Shown here piece after piece: positions 7,316 through 60,557 of a stretch of DNA of 64,000 bases (position 1 is its first letter; each line of letters opens with the position of its first letter). The DNA comes from Puniceicoccales bacterium (lineage in GTDB: Bacteria; Verrucomicrobiota; Verrucomicrobiia; Opitutales; JAIRKQ01). The notes beneath the pieces were generated by a model, which saw nothing but the letters and a program-made list of their open reading frames with translations, was not told the origin of the DNA and ran no database searches. The position numbers and the translations under genes are program-made. The stretch is taken from NCBI GenBank assembly GCA_031268175.1, contig JAIRXR010000011.1, forward strand, positions 115,659 through 179,658. The letters run 5' to 3'.

Positions 7316-7390
7316 GTTTGCGTAGTTCAATGGATAGAACATTGGCCTCCGAAGCCGAAGATTCGGGTTCGAGTCCCGACGCGAGCGCCA
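7316..7390 (+). tRNA. tRNA-Arg (anticodon CCG)
   Basis: Hand-folded cloverleaf. Acceptor GTTTGCG/CGCGAGC (two G-U pairs), D arm GTTC-AATGGATA-GAAC, anticodon arm TTGGC-CTCCGAA-GCCGA, T arm TCGGG-TTCGAGT-CCCGA, encoded CCA. Confidence 0.85.
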
Positions 7391-55592: not shown

Positions 55593-57347
55593 TCAGCCGA
55601 TGTAGGGCCAGCACACCTCCAAAATTCTCGTCAGTGCAGCTCCAACCGCTATGGAGAGAATGAATGTCCCGCACCACAGCGAAAGCGCTACCTTCCATCC
55701 CATTTCCTTTAGGATGACAATTATGGCGTTGATGCAGGGAACGAATAGGCTCACAACGACAGTCGCAGTTACGATTTGAACATTTGTTAAAACTTCCTTC
55801 GCCATGTTCAGAACCCCAACGGATGCGAAATCCCTCCTTATGATGCCCATCACGAAAACATCGGCGAATTCCTTCGGTAAGTGCAAAAGATTTTCCACAA
55901 TCGGAGCGAGTGCCGATTGCAATCGTCCGAGCATCCCGATCCTATGCAAAACGGCGATGACAATGGAACTTACAGCAAATATGGGCAGTGACTCCAGCAG
56001 AAAATGCTTCGCCTTATGGAACGTCTTTCTGCAGCAATTTTTTAGCGAAGGGATGCGAAGCGGGGGCAAACTTTCAACGAACTTCGAGGGACTGCCCTTG
56101 AAAAAATAGCCCAATATTTTTCCACTGGCCACCATCAAAGTCAGCATCGTCCCGAGGTAGATGAACCACACAGCGACGTTTCCCACGGATGCCAACATGG
56201 CAACGATAATTCCCTGCTGCGCCGCGCATGGAACGCATATTCCTATCATCGCCGTCACGATGATTCTCTCCTTTCGCGAGCCCAAAATCCTCGTCGCCAT
56301 GGTCCCCATGGCCCCGCATCCAAATCCGAGCAGCGTTGGAATTATCGCCGAGCCATTTAGTCCAAGAAAATTGTAGCCCTTGTTGGCCAAAGTGGCCAAT
56401 CGCGGGATATATCCGGAGTCCTCCAGCGCGGACATGAATACGTAAAATCCCACGATCAGAGGGAACAATATGCCGAACACCATCTGCACGACCATAGTCA
56501 GCACGCCGAACTCACCAACGAGTATTTCTGAAATCATACCATCGCCGAAACCGGCCATTACAATCTTTGAAACAAACGGCACGTACCACCTGTCGATGGA
56601 CGCAAGCAGGTGGTCGACGACAACACCGGAAATGAATACGCCCAATATCTTGAACAGCGCGAACAGGATCATGATCGCGATGGGCCATCCCACAATCGGG
56701 TTTATCAGAAGCCTGTCTATTTTTTGATACGGAGGCGGCACGACTACATTCGACGACATGCATCTGGCGGTGATGTCCTCCACCCTAGCGGCGCTGCAGC
56801 AATTCGCAAGCAGTGGGCAATGGCAGTGCCTGTGCACGGCGGAAATAATCGCGCGCATGATTTCATACCTGCCGATATTTTTGACCGCCACTGCCTCCAC
56901 AACGTCGAGATTGAGCGACCTGGTAAGCTCTTCGAGGTCGATGGAAATTCCGCGTTTTTTTGCCTCATCAACCTGGTTAACGACGAAGACCATTTTCTTG
57001 CGCGTGTTCAATAGTTGCAGCGTAAGAGTCAAGTCCCTGTCCAACGTCAAGGCATTGACGACGTTCACTATCACATCCGCCTCTTCTATGCATTCTTTTG
57101 TTATTTTAGCGGCCGGAGAATCTTCGGAGATGTCGTAGATTCCAGGGCTATCTATGAGTTCCCCGAAATGCAGCTTGGTGCTCGCGAAGGCAACGCTCGT
57201 CCCAGGATAATTGCTGATTTCCGCGTATTTCCTGGAAAACATGTTAAAAATTGAAGTTTTTCCAACATTTGGGTTGCCGACGAGCACTATTTTGTACCTT
57301 TTTTTCAGCGCACAGCTGCCGCATGCCATGTGTGTCTTCGGGTCCAA
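55593..57347 (-). CDS. feoB: ferrous iron transport protein B
   Basis: N-terminal G-domain (GNPNVGKTS, DSPG) and a C-terminal polytopic gate domain. No feoA is visible nearby. Confidence 0.9.
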   Translation of the reverse strand: MDPKTHMACGSCALKKRYKIVLVGNPNVGKTSIFNMFSRKYAEISNYPGTSVAFASTKLHFGELIDSPGIYDISEDSPAAKITKECIEEADVIVNVVNALTLDRDLTLTLQLLNTRKKMVFVVNQVDEAKKRGISIDLEELTRSLNLDVVEAVAVKNIGRYEIMRAIISAVHRHCHCPLLANCCSAARVEDITARCMSSNVVVPPPYQKIDRLLINPIVGWPIAIMILFALFKILGVFISGVVVDHLLASIDRWYVPFVSKIVMAGFGDGMISEILVGEFGVLTMVVQMVFGILFPLIVGFYVFMSALEDSGYIPRLATLANKGYNFLGLNGSAIIPTLLGFGCGAMGTMATRILGSRKERIIVTAMIGICVPCAAQQGIIVAMLASVGNVAVWFIYLGTMLTLMVASGKILGYFFKGSPSKFVESLPPLRIPSLKNCCRKTFHKAKHFLLESLPIFAVSSIVIAVLHRIGMLGRLQSALAPIVENLLHLPKEFADVFVMGIIRRDFASVGVLNMAKEVLTNVQIVTATVVVSLFVPCINAIIVILKEMGWKVALSLWCGTFILSIAVGAALTRILEVCWPYIG

Positions 57348-57396
57348 AGTGATGATTAAAAGGAATGAGTGTGGAGGGCTAAGGCAATGATAAATT

Positions 57397-57438
57397 CGAA
57401 AATTTTCGCTCCGAAATTTTCGAGATTTTTAAAATTTT
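57397..57438. promoter_or_regulatory. cluster of A/T palindromes in the divergent feoB/proS intergenic region (candidate operator sites)
   Basis: cgaaaattttcg (57397-57408), cgaaattttcg (57412-57422) and aaaatttt (57431-57438), all read directly. Confidence 0.3.
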
Positions 57439-57488
57439 ATTTTTCCATTGAAATTTCGCGCCGTTCCCTCATAAATACCGCCGTTTCA

Positions 57489-59009
57489 ATGGCCACGAGT
57501 CAACAGGCATCGGCAAATGCGTCAAAAAAAAACGCCATCTCTCCGGCCCGCGCGGAGAATTTTCCCGAGTGGTATCAGCAAGTAATCAAAGCCGCTGACC
57601 TGGCAGACAATAGCCCGGTGCGCGGATGCATGGTCATTCGCCCCTGGGGGTACGCCATCTGGGAGCTGGTGCAAAAGCGCCTCGACGCAATGTTCAAGGC
57701 AATGGGGCACCAAAACGCCTATTTTCCACTGTTCATACCGCTTGGGTACTTCGAAAGGGAAGCAAGGCACGTGGAAGGATTTGCCAAGGAATGCGCCATC
57801 GTTACCCATACGCGCTTGCAGCCAGACGGCAAAGGTGGCTTGAAGCCAGCCGCAGCGCTGGAAGAACCGCTGATCGTTCGCCCGACTTCCGAAACCATAA
57901 TCGGAGAAATGTTTTCAAAGTGGGTGCACTCGTACCGCGATCTGCCGCTGAAAATTAACCAATGGGCGAACGTCGTGCGCTGGGAAATGCGCCCGCGAAT
58001 GTTTTTGCGCACCACAGAATTTCTATGGCAGGAGGGGCATACTGTGCATGCAATCGGCGAAGAAGCCCAAAAGGAGGCGCTGGACATGCTCGAATGCTAT
58101 AGAACTTTCGCGGAGAATTACATGGCGATGCCAGTGATCTGCGGGCAAAAATCGGAATCGGAAAAGTTTCCCGGAGCTGTCTCAACGTTCACGATCGAAG
58201 CAATGATGCAGGATGGCAAAGCTTTGCAGGCTGGCACTTCCCACTTTTTGGGGCAAAATTTTGCCAAATCTTCTGGCATAAAATTTGTCAGCGAAAGTGG
58301 ACGCGAGGAATTCGGATGGACGACGTCCTGGGGCGTTACAACGCGCCTGATCGGTGGTCTGATTATGACGCACTCCGATGACGACGGCCTAGTACTTCCG
58401 CCGCAGCTGGCGCCGCTGCAGATTGTGATCTTGCCCATTTACAGGGAAGACTCCAAAGCGGAGGTCCTGGATTACTGCAAAAATCTATTCTCTGAGCTAT
58501 CGGAAATCGCATTCGGCGGCGAAAAACTACGTGTGAAAATCGACGATCGCGACATCCGCGGCGGTGAAAAATCATGGGAATTCATAAAAAAGGGCGTTCC
58601 CATGCGCATCGAAATCGGCCCACGCGACATTCAAAGCGGGACGCTCTGCGTGTGTAGGCGCGATAGATCTCCGAGCGAAAAGGAATTCGTCGGCAGGAAG
58701 GAGTTTGCAAATTCCATCGGCGAAGTGTTGGGCGCCATGCAAAGTACGCTGTTCCAGCGCGCAAAAAAATACCGCGATGAAAATTCGCAGCGCGTGAACT
58801 CCGCGGATGAATTATTTGAATTTTTCAATGGCTGTAATCCGGGCTTTGCCTACGCGCACTTGCACTGCGACGGCGCCACCGAGGAACGCGTGAAGAAGGA
58901 TTTTGGAGCGACCATTCGCTGCCTACCGTTCGAAGAAACGGAATCCGGCACTTGCATTTTCACCGGAAAGTCGAGTGAGCAAAGGGTCATCCTGGCAAGG
59001 AGCTACTAG
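57489..59009 (+). CDS. proS: proline--tRNA ligase (archaeal/eukaryote-like type, no INS editing domain)
   Basis: Starts ...ENFPEWYQQVIKAADL... Class II motifs. ~506 aa without the bacterial insertion domain. C-terminal domain ends in ...ARSY (terminal Tyr). Confidence 0.9.
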   Translation: MATSQQASANASKKNAISPARAENFPEWYQQVIKAADLADNSPVRGCMVIRPWGYAIWELVQKRLDAMFKAMGHQNAYFPLFIPLGYFEREARHVEGFAKECAIVTHTRLQPDGKGGLKPAAALEEPLIVRPTSETIIGEMFSKWVHSYRDLPLKINQWANVVRWEMRPRMFLRTTEFLWQEGHTVHAIGEEAQKEALDMLECYRTFAENYMAMPVICGQKSESEKFPGAVSTFTIEAMMQDGKALQAGTSHFLGQNFAKSSGIKFVSESGREEFGWTTSWGVTTRLIGGLIMTHSDDDGLVLPPQLAPLQIVILPIYREDSKAEVLDYCKNLFSELSEIAFGGEKLRVKIDDRDIRGGEKSWEFIKKGVPMRIEIGPRDIQSGTLCVCRRDRSPSEKEFVGRKEFANSIGEVLGAMQSTLFQRAKKYRDENSQRVNSADELFEFFNGCNPGFAYAHLHCDGATEERVKKDFGATIRCLPFEETESGTCIFTGKSSEQRVILARSY

Positions 59010-59100
59010 ATTTCGGCCACCGCTCTTCGCCACACACGTCTAAAATCGGCTTGCAATGTGTGAAATTTTCAATCCGATCTACCCCGTGGCGATGGCCATT

Positions 59101-59177
59101 CGGGGCGTAGCTTAGCCTGGCAGAGCGTTACGTTAGGGACGTAAAGGTCGCTGGTTCAAATCCAGTCGCCCCGACCA
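59101..59177 (+). tRNA. tRNA-Pro with anticodon AGG (A34)
   Basis: Cloverleaf: acceptor CGGGGCG/CGCCCCG, D arm GCTT-AGCCTGGCA-GAGC, perfect 5-bp anticodon stem TTACG/CGTAA with loop TTAGGGA (anticodon 59135-59137), T arm GCTGG-TTCAAAT-CCAGT, discriminator A, encoded CCA. The acceptor is Pro-like. Confidence 0.8.
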
Positions 59178-59243
59178 TCGGGTTTTGGAGCGTTCTCGCC
59201 GGCGTCGGATCACTTTGGCGTTGAAAATTTTGCCCTTTGGTCC

Positions 59244-60557
59244 ATGAGTTTACCCATGTCCACATTTCAGACACTGCCGGGATTTAGAGAGTTCTATCCA
59301 GGAGACTGTGCCGTCAGAAATTTCATCTTCGACCACTTTCGGCGAACGGCGAAATCGTTTGCCTTCGAGGAATACGATGCCCCCATCATCGAGCCCATGG
59401 AACTGTTCACCGCAAAATCCGGCGATGAAATCGTCTCCCAGCTGTTCAATTTCGAGGACAGGGGCGGGCGACAAATTTCAATGCGGCCGGAGCTGACGCC
59501 GTCGCTTGTCAAAATGATCGGCAATAGGGCGAATGCTATGAAAAAGCCGATAAAATGGTTCAACATCGGAGAACAATTCCGCTACGAGCGGCCGCAGAAG
59601 GGAAGGCTCCGCTCATTTTACCAATTTAATGCCGATATCATAGGAGACGATTCGCCGGGCGCGGACGCTGAAATCGTCGCCCTTGCCATTCAAACGCTGC
59701 GAAATTTTGCGCTGACGCGGAGCGATTTTCGCGTACGCCTTAGCGATCGCAAGCTATGGGCGGCATTTTTCGAGTCTCACGGCTTAGATGGCACCGATAC
59801 CCAGGCCGCGCTGGTCGCAATTGACAAAAGCGAACGCGAAGGCGAGGCAAAGACGCTGGAAGCCGTGGAAAAAATTTGCCCATCCAACGCCGGGAAAATT
59901 TTCGAAGGAATTCAAAGGCTCAAAAATGTGCATTCGCCGCGGGACCTGGAAAAATTCTGCGCAACTTGTGAAAATTTAGCCGACGCTGCCAGCGGATGCG
60001 CCGAGTTTTTTGCACTGCTGAAGCGCATGGATGAGTTTGGCCTGTCGGACTTTGTGACCATTGATTTCGGCGTAGTCCGCGGCCTGGCGTATTACACGGG
60101 GTTCGTCTTCGAAATATTCGAAAATTCCGGCCAATCGCGCGCGCTGGCCGGAGGTGGAAGATACGACAATCTGTTTGGGAAGCTCGGCTATTCCGGCCTG
60201 CCTGCCGTTGGATTTGCAATCGGTGATGTCACCCTGGGCAACCTCCTAGGCGAAAAAAATCTCATCCCGCCACTGCCAAGGGAAGTACGCTGCTTCATAG
60301 TCTACACCGAGCAGACGGAAAAAATTGCCATGGCGAAAGTGATTGCTCTCCGCGAACGCAACGTTGACGTTGACTATTGCCTAAGCCCCACAAGCTTTGG
60401 CAAACAGCTGAAAGCCGCTTCCCAAGTCGGTGCGAAATTTGCCATAATTTTCGGAGACGAAGAGGTGAAGGCCAACGGCGTAAAGATCAAAAACATGCTA
60501 AGCGGCGAAGAGAAGCCCGTTGAAATCAGCAAACTCGCGGAAGTGATTTCCCAATGA
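59244..60557 (+). CDS. hisS: histidine--tRNA ligase
   Basis: Class II motifs (…MRPELTPS…, FQFNADIIG, GGGRYDNL) and an anticodon-binding C-terminus. Confidence 0.95.
   Translation: MSLPMSTFQTLPGFREFYPGDCAVRNFIFDHFRRTAKSFAFEEYDAPIIEPMELFTAKSGDEIVSQLFNFEDRGGRQISMRPELTPSLVKMIGNRANAMKKPIKWFNIGEQFRYERPQKGRLRSFYQFNADIIGDDSPGADAEIVALAIQTLRNFALTRSDFRVRLSDRKLWAAFFESHGLDGTDTQAALVAIDKSEREGEAKTLEAVEKICPSNAGKIFEGIQRLKNVHSPRDLEKFCATCENLADAASGCAEFFALLKRMDEFGLSDFVTIDFGVVRGLAYYTGFVFEIFENSGQSRALAGGGRYDNLFGKLGYSGLPAVGFAIGDVTLGNLLGEKNLIPPLPREVRCFIVYTEQTEKIAMAKVIALRERNVDVDYCLSPTSFGKQLKAASQVGAKFAIIFGDEEVKANGVKIKNMLSGEEKPVEISKLAEVISQ

Follow-up and report, generated by a model that had tools for sequence, protein, structure and literature searches.

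The 64,000-nt stretch of Puniceicoccales DNA analysed here, referred to as a whole as the window, carries a genuine bacterial gene for tRNA-Pro with the anticodon AGG, which lies in a lineage-specific insertion between the genes for prolyl-tRNA synthetase (proS) and histidyl-tRNA synthetase (hisS). The gene and its fold, the conservation of A34, the insertion, a backbone resembling that of CGG isoacceptors and the absence of a codon-usage shift were all seen directly. The reading favoured for this gene, at a probability of just under 0.6, is that it specifies a functional and selectively maintained tRNA whose A34 would remain unmodified and which would serve as a minor reader of CCY codons.

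Bacteria almost never keep A34 outside tRNA-Arg(ACG), and the reason for this is a standing puzzle. In a survey of GtRNAdb, tRNAs with A34 other than those for Arg made up 695 of 246,393 bacterial tRNAs, which bears out the rarity that the initial annotation had asserted; all ANN anticodons were encountered at least sporadically, and genus-wide retention was seen only for Leu-AAG and Thr-AGU (bioRxiv 10.64898/2026.05.15.725136). What has been known so far is a rare class of bacterial non-Arg A34 tRNAs, and what the window adds is a phylogenetically independent member of this class in the Puniceicoccales (Verrucomicrobiota).

Structure and identity of the tRNA

The 77-nt gene at 59101-59177 on the forward strand (CGGGGCGTAGCTTAGCCTGGCAGAGCGTTACGTTAGGGACGTAAAGGTCGCTGGTTCAAATCCAGTCGCCCCGACCA) was called as tRNA-Pro(agg) by ARAGORN run on the window. 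It matches the Rfam tRNA model RF00005 end to end (model positions 1-71) with 62.3 bits, well above the gathering score of 29 (E = 4e-11). In the covariance-model alignment the anticodon loop is the 7-nt UUAGGGA, closed by a perfect 5-bp stem (UUACG/CGUAA). The loop therefore reads U32 U33 A34 G35 G36 G37 A38, an NGG anticodon preceded by U33, which places A34 at 59135, G35 and G36 at 59136-59137, and G37 at 59138. The fold offers no other triplet for positions 34-36. The gene, cloverleaf, A34, G37 and location relative to proS had all been described correctly from the letters of the sequence.

In bacteria the proline identity features of a tRNA are G35, G36, A73 and G72 paired with C1, and the G36-G37 dinucleotide marks the tRNA for m1G37 formation by TrmD. 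All of these are present in the gene at 59101-59177: the acceptor stem is CGGGGCG/CGCCCCG with C1-G72, the discriminator base is A73, and the CCA end is encoded, as it is in all three tRNA genes of the window.

Table 1. Features of the proS-hisS region, with positions in the window (L255, closest relative; A1, alignment with related loci)
Feature	Position	Strand	Basis
feoB (context, no part in tRNA function)	55593..57347	-	Pfam FeoB_N, Gate, FeoB_C
proS, archaeal/eukaryote-like prolyl-tRNA synthetase, 506 aa	57489..59009	+	Pfam; 100% match to P0001
Lineage-specific insertion of ~207 nt bearing the tRNA, from proS stop to hisS upstream block	59010..59217	+	Alignment A1
Conserved block 5' of tRNA (TTGCAA ... 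GATCTA), candidate promoter and short leader	59048..59100	+	46/53 vs L255
tRNA-Pro gene, anticodon AGG, CCA encoded	59101..59177	+	ARAGORN; Rfam RF00005; L255 orthologue
Anticodon A34 G35 G36, followed by G37 at 59138	59135..59137	+	Covariance-model alignment; A34 kept in L255
hisS upstream block TTGAAA-N17-ATnnnT, right edge of insertion	59218..59255	+	Alignment A1
hisS, histidyl-tRNA synthetase, ATG chosen by alignment with relatives	59256..60557	+	Pfam tRNA-synt_His; alignment A1

Gene organization and the insertion

The proS stop codon ends at 59009, and the tRNA starts 91 nt downstream. The encoded ProRS comprises a class II core (tRNA-synt_2b), HGTP_anticodon and ProRS-C_1 (PF09180), and the Pfam search gave no match to an editing domain at E <= 0.001; this domain set is the archaeal/eukaryote-like architecture that had been proposed for the enzyme encoded 91 nt 5' of the tRNA. 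The window ProRS is 100% identical to the database protein P0001, 'MAG: proline--tRNA ligase [Puniceicoccales bacterium]', and the next relatives are 73-81% identical. P0001 has 540 aa and starts 34 codons 5' of the start common to the relatives (506 aa, MATSQQ...; window 57369-57488), an N-terminal extension that is probably a gene-calling artefact. In a neighbour-joining tree of ProRS, P0001 and P0009 are sisters, and the ProRS of L255 is sister to that of the window.

Eight related proS loci were compared with the window. The closest, L255 (ENA ERZ28642372, an independent metagenome assembly from another study), encodes a ProRS that is 81% identical, and its proS and hisS flank a tRNA-Pro(AGG) in the corresponding position (L255 2471-2547). 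In three relatives more distant than L255 (L001, L242 and L258) proS and hisS are separated by 43-45 nt with neither tRNA nor insertion (45 nt in L258). In four others (L243, L244, L256 and L257) different genes without a tRNA-Pro follow proS, and the L259 locus ends just past proS. Alignment A1 resolves a clean insertion of ~207 nt, from 59010 to about 59217, which is shared by the window and L255, is missing from L001 and L242, and is located between the proS stop codon and a conserved block upstream of hisS.

The initial annotation had considered the adjacency of the tRNA to proS noteworthy. It appears incidental, because all relatives have the archaeal-type ProRS whether or not the tRNA is present, because the tRNA lies in an insertion that is absent from three relatives in which proS and hisS are adjacent, and because no proS was found near the other AGG loci among the matches listed in the scan of bacterial genomes described below. 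A functional link between proS and the tRNA was rejected on the same observations, the tRNA being absent beside proS in six relatives.

Several further features of the region were recorded. In the window and L255 only, feoB separates serS from proS (75% identical; in L255 a partial gene at 2-904), and it is absent from this position in L001, L244, L256 and L257; it is a second gene-order difference common to the tRNA-bearing sub-clade. The hisS upstream block TTGAAA-N17-ATnnnT is kept in all four aligned genomes (window 59218-59255; L001 11522-11564), and the hisS start codon follows it by only ~6 nt, which suggests a nearly leaderless hisS transcript.

A consensus scan of the forward strand upstream of 59101-59177 found no sigma-70 promoter, and a promoter role for the conserved block at 59048-59100 is made plausible by its conservation. 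Upstream of the two remaining tRNA genes in the window, Arg(CCG) at 7316-7390 and Leu(TAG) at 16558-16642, there is a AGATTTTTT ... TTGACT motif. This motif is lacking upstream of tRNA-Pro(AGG), which fits a different origin of its promoter region, and no motif was evident in common between the upstream sequence of tRNA-Pro(AGG) and those of the other two genes.

Conservation of A34

Between the window and L255 the tRNA is identical at 76 of 77 positions, A34 included, and the 53-nt block immediately 5' of it (59048-59100) at 46 of 53. By comparison, identity falls to 54% over the 357 four-fold degenerate sites in proS, hisS and the gene that follows, and to 42-45% in the rest of the insertion. 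This contrast indicates that the tRNA is under strong purifying selection, as judged from the two sequences. It also rules out an assembly error at 59135. A consensus error in place of a true C or G could be entertained since the source is a metagenome-assembled genome, and such assemblies do have single-base errors of this kind, yet A34 recurs in an independently assembled lineage with diverged flanks and an error is hardly conceivable.

The single difference in the tRNA is a C68-to-A change in L255, which creates a G5-A68 mismatch in the acceptor stem. The L255 tRNA does not form a cloverleaf by minimum free energy but still scores 57.1 bits in Rfam. Either a loosened constraint on the L255 lineage or an error of assembly could account for the mismatch, which is a caveat for the L255 copy, not for the window copy.

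The same comparison bears on another reading, in which the gene would be a duplicated CGG-type tRNA-Pro gene that is neutral or in decay, its anticodon mutation being tolerated and its role in translation small or nil. Decay would accommodate the L255 mismatch, the fact that CCU is the rarest proline codon with a codon usage the same as in relatives without the gene, and published work in which the fitness effects of A34 tRNAs in four-fold boxes were often neutral. A neutral gene would, however, have decayed along with its surroundings, whereas the tRNA and its upstream block are conserved where neutral sites and the adjacent insertion have diverged, and the cloverleaf, G37, A73 and CCA are all intact. 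Decay is accordingly judged improbable, and a selectively maintained tRNA is preferred.

Origin of the tRNA backbone

The backbone was compared with 92 tRNA-Pro genes listed from metagenomes, all with the T-arm and acceptor half of the window tRNA. Among these matches the nearest backbones are all CGG isoacceptors, with 7-13 mismatches, while GGG isoacceptors differ at 13 positions or more and UGG isoacceptors at 15 or more. A position-specific classifier that ignores position 34 gave log-likelihoods of -33.2 for CGG, -47.2 for GGG and -50.0 for UGG; its training set had been narrowed beforehand to tRNAs with this T-arm and acceptor half, and its leave-one-out accuracy was only 37/45. The combination of U32 and A38 seen in the window tRNA is present in 14 of 14 CGG tRNAs, and A38 is present in none of 25 GGG tRNAs. 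The best match among those listed is a tRNA-Pro(CGG) on contig L219, identical at 67 of 74 positions, with four of the seven differences making up two compensated anticodon-stem pairs. This contig is Opitutae-class, its MetF being ~60% identical to proteins of Coraliomargarita, Lentimonas and Opitutales. The nearest backbones, the classifier and the U32/A38 pair together suggest that tRNA-Pro(AGG) is a native Opitutae-class paralogue of the CGG type with a C34-to-A change. Derivation from a GGG isoacceptor by a G34-to-A change was ruled against by the CGG-like backbone and by the absence of A38 from the 25 GGG tRNAs.

Alternatively, the gene could have been gained horizontally, the donor being a eukaryote, a phage or some distant phylum with tRNA-Pro(AGG). 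The tRNA does lie within an insertion, tRNA-Pro(AGG) is the eukaryotic norm, and other bacterial lineages have such tRNAs too. The identity set is nevertheless bacterial (C1-G72, A73, with encoded CCA), unlike that of the eukaryote-type copies on contig L012, and the closest backbone is a bacterial tRNA-Pro(CGG): the closest bacterial AGG tRNAs reach at most 61/74 among the matches listed, against 67/74 for the Opitutae-class tRNA-Pro(CGG). No viral contig had the anticodon arm of the window tRNA, and only two of the 10 viral matches to a loose pattern were tRNA-Pro(AGG), so that a phage origin was rejected. Transfer from any of these sources is considered very improbable, and descent from a native CGG-type gene is retained. 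The two viral genes, called as tRNA-Pro(AGG) by ARAGORN on IMG/VR contigs L247 (12743-12815) and L249 (4149-4216), are unrelated to the window's tRNA, and one of them sits inside a 21-tRNA array that also holds Arg(ACG).

Occurrence in other bacteria

A loose tRNA-Pro(AGG) pattern was used to scan one genome per species. Among the 120 matches listed (L002-L121), at least 96 loci are called tRNA-Pro(agg) by ARAGORN, mostly in gut and rumen Clostridia, Bacteroidales and Cytophagales; examples are L004 6761-6838, L026 1586-1659 and L017 7260-7333, and records of the isolates Ruthenibacterium lactatiformans and Lachnospiraceae with this tRNA were met in L031 and L075. Nine AGG loci were compared with Rfam, of which eight scored 58-68 bits and one, the Nonomuraea call L083, fell below threshold. 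Among the matches listed, one and the same AGG tRNA sequence can recur in as many as 13 species representatives; copies without any difference occur in 13 Bacteroidales and in 8 Clostridiales. Many of the listed AGG genes lie ~100 nt from a near-identical tRNA-Pro(CGG), and the pair at L017 is identical at 76 of 77 positions, one base apart.

The AGG anticodon is thus unusual but recurrent in bacteria, and the earlier description of tRNA-Pro(AGG) as the eukaryotic solution does not hold as an exclusive statement, given these bacterial loci and the bacterial backbone in the window. By its sequence the Verrucomicrobia gene is of independent origin. Since the same type recurs in many bacterial genomes, the gene adds a further case to an oddity already on record and does not define a system of a new kind.

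Two of the matches, L012 and L096 (CBDHHR010000275.1, labelled as a Metamycoplasmataceae MAG), hold repeated eukaryote-type tRNA-Pro(AGG), tRNA-Pro(GGG) and tRNA-Leu(CAG) genes. This contig appears to be eukaryotic host DNA contaminating the bin.

Codon usage

In 44 window ORFs the proline codons are distributed as CCG 45%, CCA 32%, CCC 15% and CCU 8%. In relatives without the tRNA, whose GC is similar or lower, CCU makes up 6-9%, and no shift of codon usage toward an AGG or IGG tRNA was seen between the window and these relatives. The window has 51% GC and 60% GC3; neither AT-richness nor frequent U-ending codons, the setting of the Lactobacillales A34 tRNAs, is found. If functional, tRNA-Pro(AGG) would serve a minor codon class.

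A side observation concerns CCC, which is under-used in the window relative to other C-ending four-fold codons (15% in the proline box, compared with 37% for Ala, 42% each for Ser and Gly, and 55% for Arg). In genomes without the AGG tRNA this under-use is weaker and less consistent: L001 has Pro 23%, Ala 30%, Gly 27%, Ser 39% and Arg 54%, and L242 shows little of it.

Decoding, charging and editing

Expression, charging and modification state are inferred as follows. In the common ancestor of the two Puniceicoccales lineages the tRNA gene would have arisen by insertion, between proS and hisS, of a piece consisting of a native CGG-type tRNA-Pro paralogue and ~90 nt of upstream sequence; the C34-to-A change may have been acquired after the insertion or may already have been there. 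Transcription would proceed from the gene's own conserved upstream block. ProRS, which recognises G35/G36 together with the acceptor end and has to take all proline isoacceptors, would charge the tRNA via G35/G36 and A73/G72, and A34 should for this reason not impair charging. As G36-G37 is a TrmD substrate, G37 would be methylated by TrmD. The tRNA would then act as a minor isoacceptor for the rare CCY codons, its unmodified A34 reading CCU and CCC by two-out-of-three pairing.

Support for unmodified decoding comes from the laboratory. An orthogonal tRNA(AGG) in E. coli read CCU at 12.9%, CCC at 10.3%, CCA at 0.9% and CCG at 1.0%, with inosine undetected (PMC11066159), and a Salmonella proL A34 mutant decoded similarly, as far as that study is summarised there (Chen et al. 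2002, via PMC11066159). In E. coli with a chromosomal proL G34A change the tRNA was unmodified and at wild-type level (bioRxiv 10.64898/2026.05.15.725136). Because A34 stays unmodified in these tRNAs and CCU is read about as well as CCC, an unmodified minor CCY reader is favoured for the window. The initial annotation had expected an unedited tRNA to read only CCU, which conflicts with the published decoding of CCU and CCC at similar levels, and of CCA and CCG weakly, by unmodified A34 tRNA-Pro (PMC11066159).

A possible but less likely outcome is that TadA deaminates A34 to give tRNA-Pro(IGG), which would read CCU, CCC and CCA and extend bacterial I34 beyond Arg and Leu. TadA enzymes of Streptococcus pyogenes and Oenococcus oeni edit tRNA-Leu(AAG) (PMC11472039; PMC8072771), and in the structure of Staphylococcus aureus TadA with RNA positions 35 and 37 are described as splayed out and solvent-exposed, so that the enzyme may accommodate another base at position 35 (PMC11472039). 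The window tRNA has an encoded A34 after U33 in an anticodon stem-loop, its loop keeps U33, A34, G36, G37 and A38 and may differ from TadA substrates of the Arg(ACG) type mainly at position 35, and A34 is strictly conserved across the two lineages. Against editing, position 35 is G in place of the C35 of the canonical U33-A34-C35-G36 motif, for which the known relaxation is A35, in Leu(AAG) (PMC11472039). E. coli TadA moreover leaves Pro-tRNA(AGG) unedited on both the native proL backbone and the orthogonal tRNA (PMC11066159; bioRxiv 10.64898/2026.05.15.725136), and the Thr and Ser A34 tRNAs of O. oeni stay unmodified (PMC8072771).

Codon usage also speaks against editing. Most bacteria use an I34 tRNA for the Arg CGN box, and in the window CGU, CGC and CGA make up 81% of that box, compared with 23% of the proline box for CCU and CCC; the codons best read by IGG are not favoured. 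It is tentatively conceivable, though rather doubtful, that the TadA of this sub-clade has broadened its specificity and deaminates AGG to IGG at an early stage in which codon usage has not yet adapted. A motif search for tadA found no deaminase motif in the window or in the proS loci of the relatives. If editing by a broadened TadA were true, the tRNA would be the first I34 tRNA-Pro in bacteria and would mark, outside the Firmicutes, an independent step toward a eukaryote-like multi-substrate I34 system.

Comparison with known systems and implications

Among the closest parallels are the laboratory tRNA-Pro(A34) variants, Salmonella proL G34A and E. coli proL G34A, which are likewise bacterial, with an AGG anticodon, G37 and C1-G72/A73. 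The same decoding would be expected here, with CCU about equal to CCC and some reading of the whole box. The laboratory variants differ in being G34-to-A changes in a GGG isoacceptor, whereas the window tRNA is natural, is conserved across two lineages and is built on a backbone of the CGG type (U32, A38). The tRNA-Leu(AAG) of Lactobacillales, which TadA converts to the I34 form in O. oeni and S. pyogenes, and their tRNA-Thr(AGU) also have an encoded A34, serve four-fold boxes and are maintained within a clade. These tRNAs, however, serve other amino acids in another phylum, occur in genomes of 60-70% AT in which U-ending codons are frequent, and replace the GNN isoacceptor, in contrast to a window of 51% GC where CCU is the rarest proline codon.

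Other bacterial tRNA-Pro(AGG) genes share the anticodon, and 89 of 99 among the matches listed have the loop UUAGGGA; they often look like C34-to-A derivatives of a neighbouring CGG gene. They differ from the window gene, among these matches, in sequence (at most 61/74 identity), in phylum, in that none is beside proS, and in that many are in tandem with a CGG gene. The eukaryotic cytosolic tRNA-Pro(AGG) has the same genomic anticodon on a different backbone and identity set (compare L012), is edited by the heterodimeric ADAT2/3, and is the major proline isoacceptor with a matched codon usage, points on which the window tRNA differs throughout.

The practical impact of the finding is modest, since it concerns an uncultured organism and tRNA databases already record such genes; a demonstration of I34, or of AGG displacing GGG, would raise its significance. 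Recent experiments have found A34 tRNAs in four-fold boxes to be neutral or even beneficial. With respect to the puzzle of why bacteria rarely keep such tRNAs, a natural gene under evident purifying selection in a GC-neutral genome in which CCU is the rarest proline codon shows that A34 can be retained where neither AT-richness nor a bias toward U-ending codons exists. The Puniceicoccales gene and the cases in Clostridia and Bacteroidales jointly offer natural tests of whether A34 in the proline box is read unmodified and of whether I34 expansion starts from unmodified A34 tRNAs, as has been proposed for O. oeni (PMC8072771).
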